DNA of 64,000 nt, from contig JACTMU010000079.1 of the NCBI GenBank assembly GCA_014584465.1, forward strand, positions 8,065 to 72,064, given 5' to 3'. Under the pieces are notes generated by a model. The model did no database searches. It was not told the origin of the DNA and saw nothing but the letters and a program-made list of their open reading frames with translations. This stretch comes from Pseudomonadota bacterium (GTDB taxonomy: Bacteria > Bdellovibrionota > Bdellovibrionia > Bdellovibrionales > JACTMU01). The position numbers were made by a program, and so were the translations under genes. Positions 16,741 through 43,577 of this stretch are shown here, piece by piece (position 1 is the stretch's first letter; every line of letters starts with the position of its first letter).

Positions 16741-17574
16741 TTAGCTGAGAAGCTTAAGTGCCATGGATGGTTGAGAGTTGGCTTGTGTCAAAACTGAAGT
16801 TGATGCATTTAACAAGATGTTATTGCGTGTCAGCTCTGCACTGGATTCTGCTATATCTGCATCTCGGACCCGCGAATTGGCGGCTGAGATGTTTTCTATC
16901 GAAATTCCTAAATTGCTATCTGCTGAGATGAGGCGATTTTGAACGGCTCCCAAGGTCGCTCGATAGCCATTGACCTTTCCGAGCGCCTCTTCGATGGTCG
17001 TAAGTGCGCCTCGTGCCCCATCTTTGGTTGTAAAGTCGAAACCGTCAGTGCCAAGCACATCATTGGTTGCAACCTGTTGTCCTGCATTGAATGTAATGCG
17101 ATCGTTGAAGTCATCATTCCCGATATCCACCTGAAACTCAAAAGAGTCAGCAGATCCATCCAGGAGATGAATGTTTCCAAATCGAGTCGCCTTTGCAATA
17201 CGTTGGGATTCGTTTTTGAGCTCTTGCACCTCCATGTCAATGAACGCTCTCTCTTCTTTACCTACGGTATCACTTGCCGCCTGCACACCGAGCTCTCTCA
17301 GTCGAATGAGAATGGTGCTGATCTCGTTAAGACCACCCTCTGCGGTTTGCACCATGGACATCGCGTCCTGCGCGTTTCGTTGCGCTTGGTGGAATCCACG
17401 AATGTGGGATTTTAAGGTCTCACTGATCGACAGCCCTGCAGCGTCGTCTGCAGCTTTGGTGATTCGATCACCAGATGAGAGTTGAGCAAAGCTCTTACTG
17501 ATGTTGCGTTGGCTGTTGGCAAGTGCCCTTTGGGCATTGATCGATGCCATGTTGGTTGTAATTCGTAAGCCCAT
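16741..17574 (-). CDS. fliC: Flagellin (paralog 1)
   Basis: N-terminus MGLRITTNMASINAQRAL...LSSG.RI..AADDAAGL and C-terminus TQANSQPSMALKLLS. Confidence 0.95.
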   Translation of the reverse strand: MGLRITTNMASINAQRALANSQRNISKSFAQLSSGDRITKAADDAAGLSISETLKSHIRGFHQAQRNAQDAMSMVQTAEGGLNEISTILIRLRELGVQAASDTVGKEERAFIDMEVQELKNESQRIAKATRFGNIHLLDGSADSFEFQVDIGNDDFNDRITFNAGQQVATNDVLGTDGFDFTTKDGARGALTTIEEALGKVNGYRATLGAVQNRLISADSNLGISIENISAANSRVRDADIAESSAELTRNNILLNASTSVLTQANSQPSMALKLLS

Positions 17575-18035
17575 TTCTTCTCCTCCTCAGAGTAGAAAAA
17601 TCCCTTTACCCTCAAAGAGAGTCCGACCTACCTCGGATCTTTTCTTTAGGAGCGCCGATTCCTGGCACATTTGGTTGAATACGTTGAAGTCTTTCAGGCT
17701 CAAACTCGCTTTGATCTCTCTGCAAACGATGATCTTGAAGCAGTCACTCTTCATGATCCTCTTGAGGGATCCAGTCGAGTTTTCACTTGACCGACACCAA
17801 CTCTTTCGGCGAGGTCGCGCTCTTCTGAAGTCTCGTCGAGCGAAACTGGACTAAAGGAGGAGAATATCTAGACTTAGGAATTGAAATCAAGACGAACAAC
17901 GCGTTCTTTTCAGGGCGAAGGTCGAGACTGACACTTTGTCTATGCCGACCTTATATCGATGGACATGAGACCAATTGGACGTTTTGCCAGTCTGGCAACG
18001 GAGCTTCACCATTTTGAACCCAGATCTTGGCATCA

Positions 18036-18068
18036 ATAAAGAAAAAACCCAGGGGATGATCCCCTGGG
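18036..18068 (-). terminator. Rho-independent terminator of flagellin 2
   Basis: CCCAGGGGA-TGA-TCCCCTGGG forms a perfect 9-bp stem (18048..18068). On the minus strand it is followed by TTTTTTCTTT. Confidence 0.8.
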
Positions 18069-18128
18069 CGGGCTTAAGAGTAGTTTGTCTGTGGGCTACT
18101 ACTCCAGTTTAAATATGCGACTGTGGGC

Positions 18129-18953
18129 CTAAAGCAGCTTGAGCGCCTGACTGCCTACGGTGTTCGCTTGCGCCAGAACACTGATCGCAGCTTGTTGAAG
18201 GATCTGAGATGAAGCAGCTTCAGCTGTCTCATAGGCAATGTCTGCGTCTGAGAGCCGCGAAAAGGCCGCAGCCATATTTTCATTTTGTATATCTAAGTTA
18301 CTTACAGTTGCTTGAAGTCGGCTTGACACCGCACCAAAATCGGCGCGGAGCTTACCAAGATCAATGAGTGACTGGTCCACGGCATCCAGAGTGGCCCGCG
18401 CGGCACTCTTTGATTCTACAGAGAGTCCAGAATATCCAAGAGTGCTTCCAGTGGCATCTGCCGTGATTTGGTAGCGAATGATATTTTCTTCACCGCCAAA
18501 AGCGCCTACATGAAATTCCATTTCATCACCAGCTCCATTAAGTAAAACCTTGTTTCCAAATCGGGTTGTTTGGGCAATTCGATCAGCCTCCATGATCAAC
18601 TGTTGCGCTTCCTGATCTAAGAATCCACGCTCCACCTCTCCAACGTTGTCACTGGCAGCCTGAACACCAAGTTCTCGAAGTCGAATGAGAACGTTGTTGA
18701 TCTCACTCAAGCCACCTTCACTGACTTGAATGAGCGATTGGGCATTGAAGGCGTTGTTTCGAGCTTGCACGAGTCCGCGTCTCTGTGCCTGAATGTTTTG
18801 TGAGATGGCCAGTCCAGCGGCATCATCTGCAGCTGTGACAATTCGGTTACCTGAAGACAAAGATGCCAATGCATGTTCGCTTCGCTTTTGCTGTTTCCCC
18901 AATTGCCTCTGTGCATTGATGGATGCGATGTTTGTGTTGATTCTTAAGCCCAT
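18129..18953 (-). CDS. fliC: Flagellin (paralog 2)
   Basis: The true start is taken at the internal MGLRINTNIASINAQRQL, whose ATG at 18953 is preceded by GGAGGTTTGAA. The track ORF extends to 19115 without flagellin similarity. Confidence 0.93.
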   Translation of the reverse strand: MGLRINTNIASINAQRQLGKQQKRSEHALASLSSGNRIVTAADDAAGLAISQNIQAQRRGLVQARNNAFNAQSLIQVSEGGLSEINNVLIRLRELGVQAASDNVGEVERGFLDQEAQQLIMEADRIAQTTRFGNKVLLNGAGDEMEFHVGAFGGEENIIRYQITADATGSTLGYSGLSVESKSAARATLDAVDQSLIDLGKLRADFGAVSSRLQATVSNLDIQNENMAAAFSRLSDADIAYETAEAASSQILQQAAISVLAQANTVGSQALKLL

Positions 18954-19197
18954 TTCAAACCTCCAACGGGTTGAACACATTTTCCCTGTGTCAAATCCGT
19001 CCGCCCCTTTGGTGCCCACCGGCCCAATGAAAAAGGGATGCAGCTCTGCTCTTCCGTAAGTGGTTATTAATTTTTTCTTGCTGGAGATGGGCCGGCGTTC
19101 AAGTGGTGACTGCACTTAAATCGCCGGTTTGACTTGATTGGCACTTCGAGTGACTGCTGAAATGCTTCGATCAAGAGCTCCAACGTATTCAAGCAAC

Positions 19198-19224
19198 TTC
19201 TCGGCCTTGGTCTAGAAAACTTTA
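19198..19224 (-). promoter_or_regulatory. Sigma-28 promoter of flagellin 2
   Basis: The minus strand reads TAAAGTTT-N11-GCCGAGAA. The -35 is a perfect match and the -10 matches at 7 of 8 positions. It lies about 245 nt upstream of the ATG. Confidence 0.75.
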
Positions 19225-19319
19225 GCCTTTGGTCTAGGCTGAAGTGCTACGCAAAGCGTCTTGTCATTGATATGAATGAGAGTTTATGGAAAATATTTTT
19301 TTTGCACGATGTCCTGAGG

Positions 19320-20144
19320 CTACAATAGCTGAGCAATCTTGACGGGCGAGGCGTTCGCTTGAGCCAAGACGGCCACCCCAATGTCGGTCAGCACCTGCCC
19401 CTGCACCAGCTCGGAAATCTCGTGGGCCACATCGGCATCTGAAATTCTCGACTTGGCTGTGGAGATGTTCTCATACTGATTGTCTAGGTTGTTCATGGCA
19501 ATCTGAAGGCGGCTCTGGATCGCCCCAAAATTGGATCTTACGCCCGCCAACTGCTTGATGGCCTCGTCCAGATCGGTGAGGGTTGCGCGAGCGGCGTCTC
19601 TCTTTTCGATGCTCAAATTTTCAATTCCCATAGTGGTGGCTGTTGTATCTGCATTGAGGTTGTACCTAAGCACGTTGAACTCATCGATATTGGCACCAAT
19701 ATGAAACTCAAATTCTCCACCATCGCCGGTCAGAAGTTTCTTTGTACCAAATTGAGTCGTGCGAGCAATACGATCGGACTCTGCAATGAGTTGGGTAAAC
19801 TCTTCGTTCAGAAACTCCCTCTCCACATCGGAGACCGTGTCGCTGGCTGCTTGAACAGCAAGCTCTCTCAAACGAATGGCGATGTTGTTCTGTTCATTAA
19901 GCCCACCCTCGGCGACTTGAATCAAGGACATGGCATTTTCCGCATTGCTTCTGGCCTGCTTGGTTCCACTCAACTGCCCTCGAAGATTTTCAGCAATGGC
20001 AAAGCCCGCGGCATCGTCCTGAGACGATACAATGCGCGAACCGGTTGCAAGTGCCTTTAGGGCGTGCTCCGTCCTCATTTGTGCCTTCCCCAACGCCCTT
20101 TGCGTCGAGATGCTGGCCGTGTTTGACCCAATTCGAATACTCAT
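19320..20144 (-). CDS. fliC: Flagellin (paralog 3)
   Basis: N-terminus MSIRIGSNTASISTQRAL...DDAAGFAI and C-terminus LAQANASPVKIAQLL. Confidence 0.93.
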   Translation of the reverse strand: MSIRIGSNTASISTQRALGKAQMRTEHALKALATGSRIVSSQDDAAGFAIAENLRGQLSGTKQARSNAENAMSLIQVAEGGLNEQNNIAIRLRELAVQAASDTVSDVEREFLNEEFTQLIAESDRIARTTQFGTKKLLTGDGGEFEFHIGANIDEFNVLRYNLNADTTATTMGIENLSIEKRDAARATLTDLDEAIKQLAGVRSNFGAIQSRLQIAMNNLDNQYENISTAKSRISDADVAHEISELVQGQVLTDIGVAVLAQANASPVKIAQLL

Positions 20145-20303: not shown

Positions 20304-21017
20304 TTAAAATGATCCATACCGAGAAAATGTATCTCTGTAGATCTCCATAACAAGAGCCATCATCTGTTTCTCAGGATACTGGGAGAGCATGATCCCCACA
20401 CGTGCATGAGTTTCGTTTCGACCTCCGGGTCGAGTTCTCTTGACCAGGCGAACTTCACCTTTGATTCGAAAGAGAACCTCGTCACTTCCTCTCATCAAAA
20501 GAGCTTGGACCTCATCTCCCTTCCCAAAGAGAGGATGATCAGGAAAATCCGCACTCTCCTTAACCAAAATCGCAAGTCCCGCACGACTCAAATCCAAAAC
20601 GGGAAAGACGATGGGTTTTGGCGAACGAATGCGATCCATATAAAGCCTCAGATCGCGACTCGAATGAACTTCAACCCGAAAATCCTTCCTTCTCTGCAAT
20701 CGAAAGATGGAGTCCGAAAGATCCAACGAAAACTGACCATCGTGACGTCTCTCTAAATTGGACTTTAAAAAGAATTGATCCGACTTCAACGAAAACGTGA
20801 CGACGACTTTTCCGAGTTGACTCTCTGAAAAGGCAGGACCGGTTGGTTTGACCACAAGCTTATTGTTGCTCACTCGAACTCCACGGACGGACAGACGAGA
20901 TCGATCTGCACTGGTGCAAGTCAGTTCAACTTCCCCACTACTTATGGCAGTTCGAATCTCTTCAATCTCACTTTGATGTGAGACAGGGACAAAGTCCGCC
21001 TTCTTGCGTTCACCCAA
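20304..21017 (-). CDS. YcgR-like flagellar brake protein (PilZN plus PilZ domains)
   Basis: PilZ motif LQRRKDFR ... VLDLSRAGLAIL with an N-terminal YcgR-type domain. It sits next to the flagellin genes and has a TTG start. Confidence 0.65.
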   Translation of the reverse strand: MGERKKADFVPVSHQSEIEEIRTAISSGEVELTCTSADRSRLSVRGVRVSNNKLVVKPTGPAFSESQLGKVVVTFSLKSDQFFLKSNLERRHDGQFSLDLSDSIFRLQRRKDFRVEVHSSRDLRLYMDRIRSPKPIVFPVLDLSRAGLAILVKESADFPDHPLFGKGDEVQALLMRGSDEVLFRIKGEVRLVKRTRPGGRNETHARVGIMLSQYPEKQMMALVMEIYRDTFSRYGSF

Positions 21018-21174
21018 TGCTCCTCCTAAGAAAAAGATTGAGGTACCACCACCGCCTTGCCATTTCCGTTCTCATGGCAGTTCGGCCATACCACAATTTT
21101 CCAAACAGCCTTCATTGTATTGAGGAGAACGATGGACAGCAACTTGATCTCGATGGCAAAGATACATCGCAGCA

Positions 21175-21522
21175 CTAGGCCGCATGATCGATATAAAGAC
21201 CTTTTGTTTTGATCATGGTGGTCTCAATGGCTTCCATGGTCTGCTGGTACCTTTTCATACCAAGCTCGTGGATGCTGGTCCCCTTGCGTTTGACCTGCTC
21301 TTTTGACCGATCCTTGAACTGCCGACGTTGCTCCTTTAAAAACTCAGCAAAACGCAAAAGTCCATCCTGGGACTCTTCCTCAGTGACATCATCCAAACCC
21401 TCTTGAGATGACGACTCAGAGACCGGTTGAGTCCCCCCACCTGTAAGTGAAGATGGTGCCTCTTGGAACTCACCATCTGGAGCCTCAACCACAAAAAAAG
21501 GGGTGACCTCAGCAACTCTCAT
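21175..21522 (-). CDS. Hypothetical acidic protein with its own sigma-28 promoter
   Basis: 115-aa ORF with an acidic, low-complexity middle and a basic helical C-terminus. I recognise no family for it. Confidence 0.55.
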   Translation of the reverse strand: MRVAEVTPFFVVEAPDGEFQEAPSSLTGGGTQPVSESSSQEGLDDVTEEESQDGLLRFAEFLKEQRRQFKDRSKEQVKRKGTSIHELGMKRYQQTMEAIETTMIKTKGLYIDHAA

Positions 21523-21561
21523 TGCAAAGGCACCTGGATGTTCGTCGACCCATAGTTCTAG

Positions 21562-21588
21562 GTATCGGCAACTATTTCAATAACTTAA
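21562..21588 (-). promoter_or_regulatory. Sigma-28 promoter upstream of the 115-aa acidic protein
   Basis: The minus strand reads TTAAGTTA-N11-GCCGATAC. The -10 lies about 40 nt upstream of the ATG at 21522. Confidence 0.6.
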
Positions 21589-21619
21589 TGCTTAGCATTA
21601 GTTTGGACGCAGGATGGCC

Positions 21620-23524
21620 CTAGATTGATCCACGACCGGAATCACCCACTTGATTTGAGACATTCCATTTCAGATCCGGGTTAAGAGGCCTCACGATCTT
21701 CCCCAAAGAGATCGCCCCCAAAAGCTCCTCTTTTCGAAATGGCTTTGAAATGATTCCATCAAATCCACAGGCCAAGATCTTGTTGCGCTGGAGGGGGTCC
21801 TCAATCCGGTGGGCCGTCAATGCTACTACATAATGACGTTTAAGCTGATTTTCCTCTTCCCACTTGCGAACCATTTTGATGCTCTCATAGCCATTGACGA
21901 CCGGCATTTCGATATCCATAAAGGTGATGTCGATCTCATTTTCTCGAAGTTGCCGAAACCCTTCAAAACCATTTCGGGCCGTGATGATCCCCTTAACAGA
22001 ACTCCCAAGGAAACTCTTCATCAAAATATGCATATCCGTGCTGTCATCCACGACGAGCACCACTTTGTCACTCAAATTGGTCAGGGTGCTCCAATCGCCA
22101 GGAATTGAGTTCCTCCTTTGCTCCTTGAAACCTTTCAACGCCGTTCCTGCTGATGAGCCAAATGGAATTACAAATAAGAAACAGCTACCTTTACCGAGAG
22201 TCGACTCCACATGCAATTGACCTCCATGGAGCTCCACCATCTTTCGAACAATGGCAAGTCCCAGTCCCGAAGAGCTCTCCCCCATGGTGGGTTTATTGGA
22301 CGGACGATGACCCTTTTCTATAAGATTCTTCAACTCCTTCTCTGAAATACCAGGTCCCTCATCCTCAACCCAACATCGAATCGACTGATCTTCACAAAGT
22401 GCCCCCATCACAATGGTGGTCTGAGTCTGAGAAAACTTGATGGCATTGGAGAGTAGATTGTTGAAGACCTGACCCAATCGCATCGGATCTACGAGGACCT
22501 CACCTATTTTTTCGCTCTTCTCCAGACGCAGAACGACCCCCTTAGCCTCTGCCAAAATACGATTGTTTTCAAAACAGTCCTCCACGAAGTGATCAAAATT
22601 CACCATCGATCGTTCGAGGTTCACCTTCCCCTGCTCAATCTGATTCAAATCAAGAAGATTTTCGATCAGATTCAACATGTAGCGCGAGTTTTCCCTCATT
22701 CGGCCCAGGGCTCTTTGAGCCTCCTTGTCAAAACTCTCTGATTTGTTAAAAAGCAAATCACCATAGAGCAGGTTGCTCGACAAGGGGCTGCGCAGATCGT
22801 GCGCAACCATTCCAATAAACTGATTCTTCCGATCATTGAGATCCATAAGTTTTCCATAAAGTAGGCTCTTTTGCACTGCCACCGCGATCTGACCTGCCAA
22901 CCTCTCAAAGTAATCGACGTGAGCAGGTTTGTAAGTATTTTTGGCAAAACTTGAGAAAAAGACGAATCCGATGGGTTCCTCACCTGAAAAGAGAGGACAC
23001 GTCATGCTCGAACGAATCCCCTCGCGTAAGATCAATCGGGTCGAACCCGAACCCGGATTTTCCTTAAGATAGGCTTCAAGATCACTGATGATGCGAGGTC
23101 CACCTTGAGTCAATATCGACTCAAGACTGCTTCCTCTAAGCGGAGCCGAATATCCCTTATCAATGAAGACCGAATCGTTTCGAGTCCAATGCCCTAGCGA
23201 AACCACACGGTCCTTCTTCTCATCAATGATCGCAATTCCAACGCGATCAAAGGGGATTCTTGAAGGAAAGTGTTCCACTAAATACTCCAACACTTCATCC
23301 AAAATAAGTGCCCTATGAACTTTCTCCGACACTTTAAAGAACTCCTGCATCTCACTTTTGCACTCCTGAAATGCAAGCACCATCTTGCGAAGAGCTGTTG
23401 CGATCTGACCGACACGATCTTTACCTCGAACCGCTTCAAGCAATCCTAGATCAGGCTCCCCCTGAATTGCCTTTTGAAAAAAGTCATCCAATATTTGCCA
23501 ACGCCCCTCATCCATTGTTTCCAC
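21620..23524 (-). CDS. Hybrid sensor histidine kinase / response regulator with a GAF-like sensor region
   Basis: H-box MVAHDLRSPLSS, HATPase motifs DEGPGISEKE and GLGLAIVRKMVELHGGQLHVES, and a C-terminal REC domain (VLVVDDSTDM...FMDIEMPVVNGYE). Confidence 0.9.
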   Translation of the reverse strand: METMDEGRWQILDDFFQKAIQGEPDLGLLEAVRGKDRVGQIATALRKMVLAFQECKSEMQEFFKVSEKVHRALILDEVLEYLVEHFPSRIPFDRVGIAIIDEKKDRVVSLGHWTRNDSVFIDKGYSAPLRGSSLESILTQGGPRIISDLEAYLKENPGSGSTRLILREGIRSSMTCPLFSGEEPIGFVFFSSFAKNTYKPAHVDYFERLAGQIAVAVQKSLLYGKLMDLNDRKNQFIGMVAHDLRSPLSSNLLYGDLLFNKSESFDKEAQRALGRMRENSRYMLNLIENLLDLNQIEQGKVNLERSMVNFDHFVEDCFENNRILAEAKGVVLRLEKSEKIGEVLVDPMRLGQVFNNLLSNAIKFSQTQTTIVMGALCEDQSIRCWVEDEGPGISEKELKNLIEKGHRPSNKPTMGESSSGLGLAIVRKMVELHGGQLHVESTLGKGSCFLFVIPFGSSAGTALKGFKEQRRNSIPGDWSTLTNLSDKVVLVVDDSTDMHILMKSFLGSSVKGIITARNGFEGFRQLRENEIDITFMDIEMPVVNGYESIKMVRKWEEENQLKRHYVVALTAHRIEDPLQRNKILACGFDGIISKPFRKEELLGAISLGKIVRPLNPDLKWNVSNQVGDSGRGSI

Positions 23525-32282: not shown

Positions 32283-32822
32283 CTATCCCTCAACCATTGG
32301 TGGTCGAGTTGCAGAATCAGGAATACGAATGGCAACAGATCGATCCTCAGAGTGACCCTTAAGAGCTTTGCTGGGACTTTGAACCACCCTCTGTTGAAGA
32401 CGAGCAAAAATGGGTTCTCTGATGGCAAGGCTGTTGTCCTGAAGGACACATTGACGAGCGCGTCGTTTGGCCACATTGATCACGACTGGGGCCTTGAAGT
32501 TGGCCGTCATCTGAGTAGGATCAGCGGGAATGGTGATGATCAAGAAACTTCTGGCCTTCATCGGATCGTCCAAACCAAGAACCTCAAGGTCACTCTTGAC
32601 AAGGTCCACGTGGTAATCCGTCGCAAAAAGTTCTGGCTCCAAAACAGGAAAGGCAACGTCGGGCTCCTCACAACTTTGAAGCCACGCAAATATCTCATCA
32701 TTGGGATCATCGAGGAGGACAAATTTTCGAAGGTTTCCAAAGCCCAAAAGACCCTCTGGGAATTGAAGTAGGTCTTCCTCCATAAGTTCCATGCTCCCAA
32801 ATCGAGATGTCACTACCTTCAT
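32283..32822 (-). CDS. fliW: Flagellar assembly factor FliW (CsrA antagonist)
   Basis: FPEGLLGFGNLRKFVLLD...FAWLQS...AFPVLEP..F..DY and NFKAPVVIN motifs. It has a C-terminal extension of about 35 aa. Confidence 0.9.
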   Translation of the reverse strand: MKVVTSRFGSMELMEEDLLQFPEGLLGFGNLRKFVLLDDPNDEIFAWLQSCEEPDVAFPVLEPELFATDYHVDLVKSDLEVLGLDDPMKARSFLIITIPADPTQMTANFKAPVVINVAKRRARQCVLQDNSLAIREPIFARLQQRVVQSPSKALKGHSEDRSVAIRIPDSATRPPMVEG

Positions 32823-32997: not shown

Positions 32998-33225
32998 CTA
33001 CGACTTCAGCAACTTTGCAACGGCCCTGGTACTGTCCGAGGTCGCCTGAACGGAGACCTTGTTTTGATCCTGAATCGCTAAATAGACCTCTTCACGATGG
33101 ATCTTCGTTTCGCGTGGAGCCTCAATTCCTAATCGGACCTGCTTTCCTTTAATCTGAACCACACGAATCTTAATGTGATCATCGATGGCAATGCTTTCAC
33201 CAAGTTTTCGAGTTAATACAAGCAT
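32998..33225 (-). CDS. csrA: Carbon storage regulator CsrA
   Basis: The start is taken at the internal [48 protein letters not shown], whose ATG at 33225 is preceded by AAGGAGAAG. Confidence 0.92.
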
Positions 33226-36543: not shown

Positions 36544-36864
36544 TCACGAAGGAAACTTCAGATGTTCTTCCACCAATCGATCTGCAACTTTGGATGCATC
36601 CACCTTGTACTCTCCAGCATCAATCATCTTTTGCAATTGAGCCACTTTCGCCTCATTGACGTCGTCGCTCTCTTTAATCAAATCCTTCACCCTCTGAAGT
36701 TCCTTGGCACGATCGGACAGATTGACTTGAACCGAAGAGGATTTTTCAAGATTGGACGCCGGCGCCTCCATTCCTTCCTTCTTCCCAAGTCGTGTTGATG
36801 ACTTCTGCTTTAAACCGTTTAAACCTTGAACCTCAGATCCTAAACTCTCTTTACTGATTTTCAT
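36544..36864 (-). CDS. flgM: Anti-sigma-28 factor FlgM
   Basis: The C-terminal VNEAKVAQLQKMIDAGEYKVDASKVADRLVEEH is typical of FlgM. Confidence 0.85.
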   Translation of the reverse strand: MKISKESLGSEVQGLNGLKQKSSTRLGKKEGMEAPASNLEKSSSVQVNLSDRAKELQRVKDLIKESDDVNEAKVAQLQKMIDAGEYKVDASKVADRLVEEHLKFPS

Positions 36865-37042
36865 ATCTACCTCCTAAGGGTAGTTCTATTTCTACCATTG
36901 TATCATAATGAGACAAATCAACCTAACCCTATGGAGTCGCCTAGGCCTTCGTCGGACTCTCCTGCACCCCTTGACTCGTCGTTCGTCACCAGGCCCTCTT
37001 GCTCCAAAAAGCGGCGCGACCCTGGACCTGAAGCTAGGGATG

Positions 37043-37438
37043 CTACGGATTGGACTTTCGGTTAGCTCCATAGATCGCTAAACCTTGACTGGCCTTCGCT
37101 GGAGATTCCTGCGGTGAAGTTTCCTTAGGAATTCCGAGATGGGAACCATACCGCTCGATGAGCTGATCATAGATCATGTCGGCAAGGCCAACTCCTCCAT
37201 GCTCAGTCCAACTCTCTACATATTTGTTATCCAGTTCACCTTCAAAGATCTTTTCCGCCATTCCTTTTTCAATGAAACCTGACTCACCCACATTCTTTCT
37301 CATCTGACGAACCATCTCCTTGAGGAACTCTCCCTCATAGAGCTTCGCAACCTCTCGAAGTTGACCCTTCTTAGATTCAATCTCGTTTTCGACTTTCCTC
37401 TGAGCACTTAGCATAGACGGCGGTGAATTGATTTTCAT
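37043..37438 (-). CDS. flgJ: Rod-binding protein (FlgJ N-terminal domain-like; no muramidase domain)
   Basis: AKLYEGEFLKEMVRQMRKN and GGVGLADMIYDQL motifs. Confidence 0.75.
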   Translation of the reverse strand: MKINSPPSMLSAQRKVENEIESKKGQLREVAKLYEGEFLKEMVRQMRKNVGESGFIEKGMAEKIFEGELDNKYVESWTEHGGVGLADMIYDQLIERYGSHLGIPKETSPQESPAKASQGLAIYGANRKSNP

Positions 37439-37685
37439 GATATAAGAAAAAGGGGAGTTGAGTCAAAGCACGTCGTGCGTCCTGCACTACACTCTACAAA
37501 GTTTGTCTGTTGCCAATCCTTGGCCACTCTGTGACGAGATACTTTGTTTCCTGCGAAGAAAGAATGTAAAACCTTCCTTGGCTTTCCGACCATGAACCCA
37601 GCCTCCCCCGGCCTCAACACGTCCTGTGTTGATTTGATACACTTTAATTCTATATTCATTTTTGAATTCTAAGAACTTCTTTTTT
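37439..37685 (-). promoter_or_regulatory. Non-coding spacer between flgI and flgJ that is rich in GGA hairpins. Candidate CsrA-binding leader or sponge RNA.
   Basis: There are seven GGA motifs in 145 nt of the minus-strand RNA (37480..37624), and five are in a CA(N)GGA context. Four sit in the loops of short hairpins. The only ORF here (74 aa) lacks a Shine-Dalgarno sequence. Confidence 0.4.
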
Positions 37686-38702
37686 TCATAATATCTCTAA
37701 ATCACCGTGCAATGCCCCAACTGCCTTTAAATTTTGAAGAATTACAATCAGGTCTTTAGGTGAGACGCCAAGTTGATTCATGGCTTTCACAAGCGTACCC
37801 ACACTTACGTCTCCCTCAATGATCGCAACACGGTCTTGAGTCTGGCCCTTCTCTTTGCCTTTCGTCTGGCCCTCAACCCGAACCGACAGATCTCCGTGGC
37901 TGATGGCCACACGACTGACCCGCACTCTCTCTCCAATCACAACTGTTCCTGTCTTCTCATTGACCACAACTTTAGCTCGAAAATCAGGTTGAACCTCAAT
38001 CGTTTCAATTGCTGCCAGAAGATCCACTCCTTTGCCCTCATAAGTTGAAGGCACTACAACATCAATCGTTGCAGCATCACCCGCAGTTGCATACTTTCCA
38101 CCCAAATCCAGATTCACCTGCTTGGCCACACGGGCTGCAGTGGTGAAATCTGGATTGTGCAGGGTCAATCGATACATCTCGCGTTGGGCAAATCCTTGCC
38201 CTACATCTCTTTCTATGATCGCTCCGTTGGAGATTCTTCCAACCGTTGGATGTGAAGACTCGCCACCAACCAGAATCGCCCCCTGAGCCACAGCATAGAT
38301 CTGTTGATCGGCCGCACGAAGCGGAGTTTGCACGAGAGTTCCACCCATCAAACTTGTTGCATCTCCAATGGAGTTGACCGTGATGTCCAGCGGATTTCCA
38401 GAGCGAGCAAATGGCGGAAGGTTTGCCGTAATCAAAACCGCAGCCACATTCTTACTTGAAGCCTCTTTCCCTCCAAGCTTCATTCCTAGTTGATCCAGCA
38501 TTCGAACCATGCTCTTGTTGGTAAACTCGAGTTTGCTATCTCCAGTCCCCTTCAAACCCACAACCAACCCATAACCGATGAGTTGATTTTCTCGAACGCC
38601 ACGAATGCTTGCAATGTCTTTGAGTCGAGCAGCTTGACTCAAAGATGACATGATGATGGCAAGGATCGATATCAGAGTTTGAAGAATCAAGAACTCTCTC
38701 AT
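37686..38702 (-). CDS. flgI: Flagellar P-ring protein FlgI
   Basis: RLKDIASIRGVRENQLIGYGLVVGLKGTGD and the C-terminal LKAVGALHGDLEIL. Confidence 0.95.
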   Translation of the reverse strand: MREFLILQTLISILAIIMSSLSQAARLKDIASIRGVRENQLIGYGLVVGLKGTGDSKLEFTNKSMVRMLDQLGMKLGGKEASSKNVAAVLITANLPPFARSGNPLDITVNSIGDATSLMGGTLVQTPLRAADQQIYAVAQGAILVGGESSHPTVGRISNGAIIERDVGQGFAQREMYRLTLHNPDFTTAARVAKQVNLDLGGKYATAGDAATIDVVVPSTYEGKGVDLLAAIETIEVQPDFRAKVVVNEKTGTVVIGERVRVSRVAISHGDLSVRVEGQTKGKEKGQTQDRVAIIEGDVSVGTLVKAMNQLGVSPKDLIVILQNLKAVGALHGDLEIL

Positions 38703-42224: not shown

Positions 42225-43577
42225 CTACTTCCCATCGACGGGAAACTCGACGGCCATCAATGCCTTGCGAAAGGTCCCAACGGTGTGATCCTTTGTGTAT
42301 CGGAACTGTCGTACGAACTGATTGAACCCCGCCTTCTCCGGCTCTGCAAAGGTCGTAAATTTGACCAGATCGTGAGCCACAATGAAGAGTGCCGCAAGAG
42401 GTGCAATGTGATGCCCCGTAAGCCCCTTTGGAAACCCTGTACCATCAGGTCTTTCATGATGCTGAGACACAATCAGATCCACATCAGGAGGAACCTCTTT
42501 CATGTTGCGAATCATGGTCGCCGCGGCCAGGGGATGACCCTTGAACGTCTCCACATCTTCATTTGAAAGAGTCGCTGATTTTTGTTGCAGCTCCTCCAAA
42601 GTATCAATCTCAGAGAGCATGCCACCTCGCAGATGAATGTCATGAAAAAAGGCTGCCAGTGACAGTTTATAAAATGTGGATTCTGAGGGCCACTCAAGCT
42701 TCGCGGCCAAAGCACATGCCACGTGCGCTGTCGCAATGGAATGAAACGAAAAATAGGACCCCGCCTGATCCCGAATCATCGAATAGATCTCCTTCAATTG
42801 AGGGTCTTTACCTACACTCTGAACGGTCATATCCACTGCAGCTTTCGCAATCTTTTGAACCTCTGGACTAAAGCCTAGCTGAGAATGAAGTTCTGAAACC
42901 ACTTCGGTGATCGCCGCGGCCGTGATTGCCCGCTCAAACCGTGACCCCTTCTCGGTTAAGACCATCGCAGTGATCTTCTCTTGAAATTGTCCGATAAATC
43001 CGGCAACTTCCTCCATCTTCAGATAGAAGTAGTCGATCTTCTTTCTCCCCTGATACTTATCAAGATCTTCCTGCCCAAAAACTCGACCTTTTCGAAACAT
43101 CTTGACATATTTGATCTGAGAAAGTCGGATGTAGACGTCGGCTTCCAAAGGGATCACCTTCAAAAGAAGCTCCGTCTTGATCCGGCAAAATGAGTCATCA
43201 CTTTGTCGATCCTCGATAGCTCCTGATTCAATCGACCTCTCAATGAGATCCACAATCTCCCCAAGTTCTTTAAAAGAGGTGACCTCTCCAAGTTTGACGA
43301 GGTCAGGAAAGGCCTGAGAACCACTTGCAGCCTTTCCTTGCCCTAGGACGAGTATGTACGGAATCTTGCCTTCGACCGAGAGAAGGTACTTGAGAAGTTT
43401 GGTTCCATCAATCCCCTCCTGACAGAGGATCAACTGGACGGCGTTGTCTTCTAGAAGATGATCGACTGCTTGCACATAGTTTGTAACCCAATGCACTTTG
43501 CCATGAAATTTTCCTTCCAAGTTAAAGCGCGCCATCTCCCAAAGTTCAAACTTATCATGCAAAACCAATATTTCCAT
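42225..43577 (-). CDS. HD-GYP domain c-di-GMP phosphodiesterase with a degenerate receiver-like N-terminus
   Basis: Contains AAFFHDIHL, KGHP and HHERPDGTGFPKGL (HD-GYP signature). Confidence 0.85.
   Translation of the reverse strand: MEILVLHDKFELWEMARFNLEGKFHGKVHWVTNYVQAVDHLLEDNAVQLILCQEGIDGTKLLKYLLSVEGKIPYILVLGQGKAASGSQAFPDLVKLGEVTSFKELGEIVDLIERSIESGAIEDRQSDDSFCRIKTELLLKVIPLEADVYIRLSQIKYVKMFRKGRVFGQEDLDKYQGRKKIDYFYLKMEEVAGFIGQFQEKITAMVLTEKGSRFERAITAAAITEVVSELHSQLGFSPEVQKIAKAAVDMTVQSVGKDPQLKEIYSMIRDQAGSYFSFHSIATAHVACALAAKLEWPSESTFYKLSLAAFFHDIHLRGGMLSEIDTLEELQQKSATLSNEDVETFKGHPLAAATMIRNMKEVPPDVDLIVSQHHERPDGTGFPKGLTGHHIAPLAALFIVAHDLVKFTTFAEPEKAGFNQFVRQFRYTKDHTVGTFRKALMAVEFPVDGK

Follow-up and report, generated by a model that had tools for sequence, protein, structure and literature searches.

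The subject of this work is a short intergenic region within a 64,000-nucleotide stretch of DNA from a bacterium of the order Bdellovibrionales (contig JACTMU010000079.1; hereafter, the window). The window contains a cluster of flagellar genes that are arranged on the minus strand in the order flgG, flgA, flgH, flgI, a 247-nt gap (37685-37439), a FlgJ-like gene, flgM, flgN, flgK, flgL, csrA, and fliW (the features of this cluster and of the gap lie on the minus strand unless stated otherwise). The identities of flgM, flgN, the rod-binding FlgJ-like gene, flgI, csrA, and fliW are backed by Pfam. Upstream, the gap is bordered by the P-ring gene flgI (37686..38702; Pfam FlgI, 1.8e-113), the 3′ end of which marks the position of the element throughout its family, and downstream by the FlgJ-like rod-binding gene of 131 aa (37043..37438; Pfam Rod-binding, 1.9e-13). 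The FlgI protein of the window shares no more than 72% identity with that of any GTDB species representative, the nearest ones belonging to Bdellovibrionaceae and Pseudobdellovibrionaceae. The gap holds a predicted small RNA of about 198 nt (37444..37641), which was recognized as an ortholog of APsRNA1 from Bdellovibrio bacteriovorus by its match to a covariance model (R1, cf. below) and its 77% identity to the published sequence. Its 5′ end in the window was placed by homology to the start site mapped in strain HD100, and its 3′ end was set after a U-run. We consider it rather probable that this RNA represents a new family of CsrA-titrating small RNAs, the binding of CsrA being predicted from the sequence and the conserved fold.

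The minus strand of the gap contains exactly seven GGA trinucleotides, starting at positions 37624, 37606, 37587, 37577, 37551, 37519, and 37482. All of them fall within 37480..37624, with neighbors spaced 10 to 37 nt apart, and five of the seven stand in a CAGGA or CAAGGA context. This recount agrees exactly with the initial annotation, which had been made from the window sequence and reported seven GGA in 145 nt, five of them as CA(N)GGA. The expectation of about 2.3 GGA per 145 nt given there was too low, the true background of the strand being 3.3. Since 3.6% of same-size windows reach seven or more, the raw GGA count is only mildly unusual. A stronger signal came from CA(N)GGA, found five times in the gap versus 0.55 to 0.68 expected; the gap is the top 200-nt window for this motif on either strand of the 64 kb, the runner-up windows having four. 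All four hairpins that had been proposed to present GGA in their loops were found at the same coordinates in the minimum-free-energy (MFE) fold, with the looped GGAs unpaired at a probability of 0.8 to 1.0. The folding z-score was −1.83 for the whole gap and −1.08 for the RNA alone, which is not exceptional, and single-sequence stability was therefore not used as evidence. No match to the Rfam 15 families (CsrB, CsrC, RsmX, RsmY, RsmZ, and others) was obtained in the whole window at gathering thresholds, nor at E ≤ 10 in the region 37300-37800, and model R1 found no second copy of the RNA in the window. Thus, judged by the window sequence alone, the case for a CsrA sponge is weak and would stay a lead, and it is the comparison with relatives that decides.

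A gap of 240 to 680 nt between flgI and the flgJ-like gene was present in 42 GTDB genomes, and the sense strand of every one of these 42 gaps contained 6 to 21 GGA and 4 to 7 CA(N)GGA, whereas TCC was scarce on it. The covariance model R1 was built from 15 seed orthologs, the window among them, and its E-values are rough because of a shortened calibration. In the window, it gave a sole match of full model length at 37439-37644 (131.8 bits, E = 4e-32). In the GTDB species genomes, it gave 35 strong matches (E < 1e-15; contig ends truncate two of these), with one copy per locus, and 11 further weaker matches (two partial) at the same position after flgI, in a variant subgroup. Since 20 of the strong matches had not been seeds, the model generalizes. 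Its matches always lay directly 3′ of flgI; the spacing between the RNA and flgI is conserved, whereas that between the RNA and flgJ is not. A pattern scan of metagenomes revealed no new genomic location: 10 of the 80 listed loci were family members by R1, with the order flgI, RNA, flgJ wherever the contig reached both neighbors. The other 70 listed loci had no R1 match and were set aside as probable chance matches to the pattern. The family was traced in this way through at least 55 genomes and contigs. In 41 orthologous loci, CA(N)GGA occurred 4.55 times per 200 nt inside the RNA versus 0.47 outside it on the same strand, and the RNA was the top CA(N)GGA window of its locus in every one of the 41. 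A chance origin of the GGA pattern is excluded by these comparative data.

The alignments revealed a shared architecture, in which a 5′ hairpin, H1 (ACACAUGGAUGUGU), is followed by a long-range closing stem, GGGGAG...CUCCCC, and then by a U-run; enclosed in the closing stem are H2 (ACCAUGGAAGGU), H3 (GUUUC-UCGCAG-GAAAC), H4 (CCAAGGAUUGG), and H5 (GUGCAGGAUGCAC). RNAalifold, run on an alignment made with MAFFT only, predicted 38 base pairs, 17 of them with compensatory changes. In the alignment of 47 sequences fitted to the model, which as such leans toward structure, 93.6% of the cells were paired, 29 of the 38 pairs had changed on both sides, and the covariation score was 0.45, compared with 0.15 after shuffling (none of 500 shuffles reached 0.45) and at most 0.09 with the partners slid. 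We regard the covariation signal as real because it agrees both with the prediction from the MAFFT-only alignment and with the evident divergence of stem sequences, such as the H4 variants given below. The GGA was found in the loop of H1 in 46 of 47 sequences, of H2 in 43 of 44, of H4 in 41 of 44, and of H5 in 43 of 45. The element is a conserved structured RNA, with GGA loops that are nearly invariant and stems that covary, and the persistence of motifs and hairpins in orthologous spacers, on which the initial annotation had made its proposal depend, is hereby answered in its favor.

In the window, H1 reads CAACAC-AGGAC-GUGUUG (37615..37631) and is part of the MFE fold, its GGA (37624-37622) lying in the loop with a probability of 1.0 of being unpaired. 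In the family, compensatory changes affect 10 of the 12 pairs of the H1 helix, and the commonest H1 loop, ACAUGGAUGU, fits the CsrA/RsmE consensus, which is reportedly A/UCANGGANGU/A or (A/U)CANGGANG(U/A) and is said to go back to Dubey 2005 and Schubert 2007. The next GGA is contained, in paired form, in the 5′ arm of the closing stem (GGGGGAG, 37603..37609), which pairs with 37457-37451 in the MFE fold; three of the four pairs modeled for this stem have changed on both sides in the family, including a change from GC to AU. It is followed by a GGA in the single strand between helices (UCGGAAAG, 37585..37587; probability of being unpaired, 0.39-0.89), which is less conserved in the family. H2, AAGCC-AAGGAA-GGUUU (37569..37584), likewise belongs to the MFE fold and carries GGA 37577-37575 in its loop (unpaired at about 0.8); in the family, this loop GGA is seen as ACCAUGGAAGGU or ACCAAGGAAGGU. 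In the H3 region (UUUCUUCGCAGGAAA, 37547..37561), the GGA (37551-37549) sits at the border of loop and stem and is mostly paired in the fold of the window sequence, and the family shows a nearly invariant GCAGG(A/G)AAC with a GUUUC/GAAAC stem. H4, GCCAA-GGA-UUGGC (GCCAAGGAUUGGC, 37512..37524), presents GGA 37519-37517 in its loop (unpaired at 0.94-0.98), and H5, GUGC-AGGAC-GCAC (37475..37487), presents GGA 37482-37480 (about 1.0). Compensatory changes were found in five of five pairs in both H4, with stem variants such as UCACGGAGUGA, CCUCAGGAUGAGAG, and GCGAAGGAUUCGC, and H5, whose commonest loop is GCAGGAUGC. The 3′ arm of the closing stem (CUCCCC) and the U-run (37451-37444) together form a terminator-like 3′ end (UUUUUCUU, 37444..37457), and an arm of the CUCCCC type (variants ACCCCC, CGCCCC, and UUCUC) followed by a T-run was present in all 24 aligned orthologs. 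The variant subgroup and a copy from Bacteriovorax keep the common fold plan, with a closing stem that differs in sequence (GAGAGGAGUUCUU/AAGAACUCUUCUC).

That the RNA is made in at least one organism follows from the literature. Karunker et al. (2013, PLoS One 8:e61850, PMC3627812) included, among eight small RNAs from the attack phase of B. bacteriovorus HD100, APsRNA1, a primary transcript of 207 nt (499,375-499,581, + strand) with a start mapped by tobacco acid pyrophosphatase (TAP)-dependent enrichment. Its reads per kilobase per million (RPKM) amounted to 50,451 in the attack phase and 3,181 in the growth phase, i.e. a 16-fold attack-phase induction, and no FliA promoter was listed for it (PMC3627812). 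According to Table S1 of the same paper (PMC3627812), the RPKM values in attack and growth phase were 15 and 9 for flgI (Bd0535, 498,325-499,332) and 7.7 and 41 for flgJ (Bd0536, 499,642-500,349). APsRNA1 thus exceeds its flanking genes about 3,000-fold in abundance and, in the attack phase, flgJ about 6,500-fold, and its coverage in HD100 stops at the equivalent of the U-run (...CTCCCCTTT). The APsRNA1 sequence given in Figure S1 of that paper shares 99.5% identity with its counterpart in B. bacteriovorus strain kdesi (locus L018) and 77% with the window RNA. Both the HD100 and the window RNA match R1 and share the locus (between flgI and flgJ), the strand, the hairpins, and the terminator; the window copy differs in that its upstream dyad (cf. 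below) is degenerate and that it abuts flgJ directly. Among seven of the HD100 attack-phase RNAs that were scored (APsRNA6 was left out), only APsRNA1 had several GGAs in small hairpin loops. For comparison, the cyclic-di-GMP riboswitch RNA of HD100, merRNA, contains 15 GGA, one of them in a small hairpin loop. The original report (PMC3627812) assigned no function to APsRNA1 and mentioned neither CsrA, GGA motifs, nor homologs outside B. bacteriovorus, and we found no later mention of this RNA in the searchable literature, from which most subscription journals are missing. As far as that literature goes, the transcript itself was known already, whereas no earlier account seems to exist of the family, of its structure and breadth, or of a link to CsrA.

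The transcription start in HD100 lies 5 nt past a TACAAT hexamer, as it would in strain kdesi, and in the window a predicted −10 box, TAGAAT (37647..37652), keeps the same spacing, which places the start near 37641. About 20 of 36 orthologs have a TAnnnT hexamer at the −10 offset. Since both the −10 box and the U-run are conserved, we infer that the window RNA is a discrete primary transcript as well, such a transcript having been measured in HD100. Most orthologs have, just past the flgI stop codon, a conserved dyad, TGTTTC-N5-GAAACA, which lies 30 nt from the −10 hexamer in 20 of the 21 orthologs where the dyad pattern matched and 29 nt from it in the other. In the window, a degenerate copy of it (AGTTCTTAGAATTCA, 37663..37677) aligns to this dyad, and its function is uncertain because of the degeneracy. 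A 17-bp dyad of the form TGTNTC-N5-GANACA, conserved upstream of the RNA in many relatives, is seen again in at least 17 loci at a distance of 20 to 35 nt from the start codon of flgM, on its upstream side (e.g., L003:6008, L009:5983, L016:5965, and L024:5955); in the window, it is found as TGTCTCATTATGATACA at 36899-36915, before the flgM ATG at 36864. Often, there is another copy upstream, TGTCTCAGAATGATTTGG. In total, 29 dyad matches were found in 484 kb of loci plus two in the window, nearly all at these two positions, with about 0.5 to 1 expected by a rough estimate. Since the dyad recurs ahead of both the RNA and flgM, it suggests a shared regulator of the RNA and the anti-sigma factor gene.

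A simple scan for promoters yielded a single sigma-70-like match on the minus strand, which was rejected because its −10 box overlaps the flgJ ATG. The simple scan also found no local terminator hairpin, because the terminator stem is long-range. Inspection by eye revealed no convincing sigma-28 or sigma-54 promoter upstream of the RNA, in agreement with the absence of a FliA promoter from the APsRNA1 entry. The GacA/UvrY box, TGTAAG-N6-CTTACA, had no match with three or fewer mismatches near 37640-37760, and its window-wide count equaled the chance expectation.

The proposed partner of the RNA, CsrA, is encoded in the same cluster (32998..33225; Pfam CsrA, 5.9e-26), and fliW, encoding the protein antagonist of CsrA, follows immediately downstream (32283..32822; Pfam FliW, 9.2e-38), so that the initial annotation was right in assigning both genes to the window. 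The best solved-structure match of the window CsrA was chain D of 5DMB, labeled as a carbon storage regulator homolog, an entry which we take to be the CsrA-FliW complex of Geobacillus thermodenitrificans. The alignment extends through the C-terminal extension, and N55 is conserved. This asparagine is a key residue for FliW binding (PMC13407953), and by this alignment the window CsrA is of the FliW type. CsrA of B. bacteriovorus represses hag in a heterologous Bacillus subtilis assay (PMC13443453). The joint presence of the RNA and csrA was seen in the window and in two metagenome loci (L092 and L097), which continue to flgL, csrA (81-84% identity), and fliW; the flanks of the GTDB loci (4 kb) end before csrA. 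The window also contains three tandem flagellin genes on the minus strand (17574-16741, ~18952-18129, and 20144-19320) beside fliD (16131-14731), and the third of them is preceded by a sigma-28-like promoter, CTAAAG-N14-GCCGAAAT, at ~20276-20249 and has its Shine-Dalgarno (SD) sequence in a ACAAGGAGA context. The three flagellin genes are plausible CsrA targets. A GGA stands in or near the SD sequence in all three flagellin leaders, which is not evidence either way, since any SD of the GGAGG type has one.

These findings led us to propose the following mechanism. The small-RNA gene would be transcribed from its own sigma-70-like promoter (−10 box at 37652-37647, start near 37641), and transcription would end at the U-run (37451-37444) after the long-range closing stem GGGGGAG/CUCCCC(U). 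The product, of about 200 nt, is predicted to consist of the 5′ hairpin and a closing stem around a multi-branch domain of short hairpins. Four loops present GGA in a CA(N)GGA(N)G context, and one or two more GGAs are single-stranded or lie at a helix edge, giving 4 to 6 accessible GGA sites in the context of the CsrA consensus. If each CsrA dimer bridges two sites, one RNA could hold about two to three dimers. Because the HD100 ortholog is very abundant in the attack phase, the RNA would titrate CsrA away from its mRNA targets, lowering free CsrA and relieving the repression of these targets, most likely the flagellin leaders. It would act alongside FliW encoded next to csrA, with FliW supplying the feedback from flagellin secretion and the RNA a transcriptional, life-cycle input. 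The premises of this scheme are observed, namely conservation, covariation, invariant GGA loops, conserved promoter and terminator, an abundant independent transcript in HD100, and a location in the same cluster as CsrA and FliW; from them we infer CsrA binding, sequestration, targets, and physiological role. A more far-reaching version, to which we give roughly even odds, is that a FliW-type CsrA would be under two antagonists, FliW and a dedicated multi-site sponge RNA of the same flagellar cluster. This arrangement would be unprecedented, and Csr-type sponge families would for the first time extend beyond Gammaproteobacteria; the dyad, recurring at flgM, would feed life-cycle or flagellar-stage information into CsrA activity, and the GGA-bearing closing-stem terminator might gate read-through into flgJ in a CsrA-sensitive manner.

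The predicted RNA resembles the known sponges RsmX, RsmY, and RsmZ of Pseudomonas and CsrB and CsrC of Enterobacteria in being non-coding and in having several short hairpins with (A)NGGA loops, a Rho-independent terminator end, high abundance (here that of the HD100 ortholog), and a proposed binding of multiple CsrA dimers that relieves repression. The number of sites in RsmY and RsmZ is close to the 5 to 7 of the window RNA. However, it has no sequence or covariance-model similarity to the Rfam families and is not a homolog of these RNAs, it has the TGTTTC-N5-GAAACA dyad upstream instead of a GacA/UvrY box, and its host, a member of Bdellovibrionota, possesses a CsrA of the FliW type, with N55 and a C-terminal extension. 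Furthermore, unlike the genes of the known sponges, its gene is fixed inside a flagellar cluster, and its terminator stem is the long-range helix that closes the multi-hairpin domain. Another parallel is provided by the hag leader of B. subtilis and the flaA leader of Campylobacter jejuni, which are also GGA-hairpin RNAs in organisms with FliW and CsrA; they are bound by CsrA, whereas for the window RNA such binding is predicted. The hag and flaA leaders have two CsrA sites, one of them overlapping the SD sequence. Unlike these coding mRNAs, the window RNA is non-coding, has at least five sites, and lies apart from the window's three flagellin genes (16741-20144). The flaA mRNA of C. jejuni has been proposed to titrate CsrA too (PMC4894983).

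A CsrA-titrating RNA beside FliW would depart from the current picture. FliW is absent from Gammaproteobacteria and anti-correlated with BarA-UvrY, and whether FliW and small RNAs act jointly anywhere "remains to be determined" (PMC7652899). In current reviews, the two modes of CsrA antagonism exclude each other across lineages, with sponge small RNAs acting in Gammaproteobacteria and FliW in other groups, and a 2026 paper describes FliW-type systems as being without Csr small RNAs; the absence of any known RNA sponge from systems of the FliW type, as stated in the initial annotation, agrees with reviews from 2020 and 2026. If our interpretation is true, bacteria that employ FliW would have in this RNA their first candidate for an RNA-type decoy of CsrA, and a function would be found for an orphan small RNA. 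The family offers a concrete, testable candidate for the question of joint action, since HD100 is a cultivable model in which the RNA is highly expressed in the attack phase. Hardly anything is known of CsrA regulation in B. bacteriovorus (PMC13443453), and the RNA would offer a way in. The covariance model R1 is directly usable for annotating the family.

Several observations weigh against titration of CsrA by this RNA: (i) the window sequence, taken alone, shows only a mild GGA enrichment and a fold of ordinary stability; (ii) flgI and flgJ are adjacent, with no RNA between the two, in eight relatives, and they are adjacent in the outgroups; (iii) an open frame persists across the RNA in many orthologs; (iv) the searchable literature contains no publication tying the RNA to CsrA and no CsrA-binding or genetic data on it; (v) with 5 to 7 sites, it stands at the low end for a sponge, like RsmY or RsmZ and far below CsrB; and (vi) the FlgJ-like gene of the window starts (ATG 37438) only 5 nt past the end of the U-rich tail (CUCCCCUUUUUCUUAUAUCAUG, 37438-37460), without an SD sequence. 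The third of these bears on a coding function, which we regard as very improbable, be it of the 74-aa open reading frame (ORF; 37659..37435) or of the frame open in orthologs. Most orthologs do have a stop-free frame of 66 to 79 codons over almost the whole RNA, each such frame being longer than 94 to 98% of shuffles, and tblastn with the 74-aa ORF gave weak matches (best E = 1e-6). However, stop trinucleotides are depleted in all frames (4-9 observed versus 11-14 expected), which alone explains the long open frames, and no third-position excess was seen in column diversity (0.31, 0.35, and 0.36 at codon positions 1, 2, and 3), nor was identity to the window shaped by codon position in a way expected of a gene (0.57, 0.61, and 0.54). 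The conserved segment from H5 to the terminator is read in all three phases across species, because the lengths of indels separating H4 from H5 are not divisible by three, and the open frame of the window is out of phase with the one open in most orthologs. As the initial annotation had stated, no SD sequence precedes the ATG at 37659, and this codon is located upstream of the predicted start site; the in-frame AUG of the ortholog frame sits inside the H1 stem, directly after a GGA; the more divergent members have stops in every frame, and no Pfam match was obtained. A protein-coding 74-aa ORF was rejected on codon positions, inconsistent phase, stop depletion, the missing SD sequence, and the lack of a Pfam match; the protein-level conservation that would have spoken for it was looked for, and no coding signature was found. 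Nor is it the only ORF in the gap, as had been claimed, for the same strand has a further ORF of 51 aa and the plus strand has two. The RNA may have a dual function, RNA and coding, with these tests arguing against the coding part. As a separate observation, the stop depletion (37444-37644; in orthologs, e.g., L018:5048-5266) may follow from the purine-rich, GGA-rich composition.

The position of the flgJ ATG raises the question of whether the RNA has its main role in cis, as a 5′ leader or attenuator of flgJ, perhaps also of flgM and flgN, in which case CsrA on the hairpins would control termination at the U-run or flgJ translation with no titration in trans. We consider this unlikely, though it fits the SD-less, very short gaps between the RNA and flgJ that are also found in several relatives (L010, L020, and L028; other relatives have a spacer with GGAG), and the GGA in the 5′ arm of the terminator stem, GGGGAGG, for which CsrA could compete. 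It accords poorly with the roughly 6,500-fold excess of the RNA over flgJ in the attack phase of HD100 and the end of its coverage at the U-run, with the 40 to 400 nt that separate the U-run from flgJ in most orthologs, sometimes with a second terminator and a separate SD sequence (L018), and with the conservation of the spacing to flgI rather than to flgJ; moreover, it is compatible with a sponge role. Since the flgJ ATG follows the tail by 5 nt and lacks an SD sequence, flgJ may depend on read-through, which would make the RNA of the window genome a secondary leader or attenuator as well. The initial annotation had left "sponge or leader" side by side: the sponge is favored by the outcome of all computational tests made, among them the conservation, the RNA's own promoter and terminator, and the HD100 transcript, and the leader role is kept only as a possible secondary one. 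Similarly, of its non-coding spacer inside an operon, the non-coding part stands, whereas the operon-internal part gives way to an independent gene. Slightly less likely still than the cis-acting leader is a regulatory small RNA independent of CsrA, which would act by base pairing or as the ligand of another protein, its GGA loops serving as seed, kissing-loop, or SD mimics. Such loops do resemble SD sequences, the searchable literature contains no CsrA-binding data that would oppose this explanation, and base pairing was raised by Karunker et al. as a generic option for attack-phase small RNAs (PMC3627812). Yet five separate loops share a short motif in the CsrA-consensus context while the rest of each hairpin drifts, which fits a repeated protein-binding site better than a single seed region, and the RNA is located in the gene cluster that encodes CsrA and FliW. 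We know of no other bacterial RNA-binding protein that reads ANGGA hairpin loops. A CsrA-titrating small RNA hence remains our preferred reading of the gap.

Some minor observations concern the outer members of the family and the surroundings of the window cluster. In a metagenome-assembled genome of Bacteriovorax stolpii (L056:5161-5330), a shorter version of about 160 nt lies directly after flgI; it is a marginal R1 match (E = 0.096) with an H1-like hairpin, CACACAGGAUGUGUG, a long closing stem, and an inner hairpin, ACGCAGGAUGCGU. No such RNA was found in a second Bacteriovoracaceae locus (L058). Two Bdellovibrio isolates (L023:5261-5650 and L025:5222-5570) have 350 to 390 nt extra between the RNA and flgJ, containing a long inverted repeat (e.g., gtgaggtaagtgaagggttgcagcagccc ... 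gggctgctgcaacccttcacttacctctcac), which looks like an inserted palindromic element. Finally, the flagellar clusters of the window are flanked (20304-23524 and 42225-43577) by genes for a weakly matching PilZ-domain protein, a hybrid histidine kinase that carries GAF and receiver domains, and a protein with an HD domain (Pfam HD_5, HD), and the PilZ domain hints at cyclic-di-GMP signaling.

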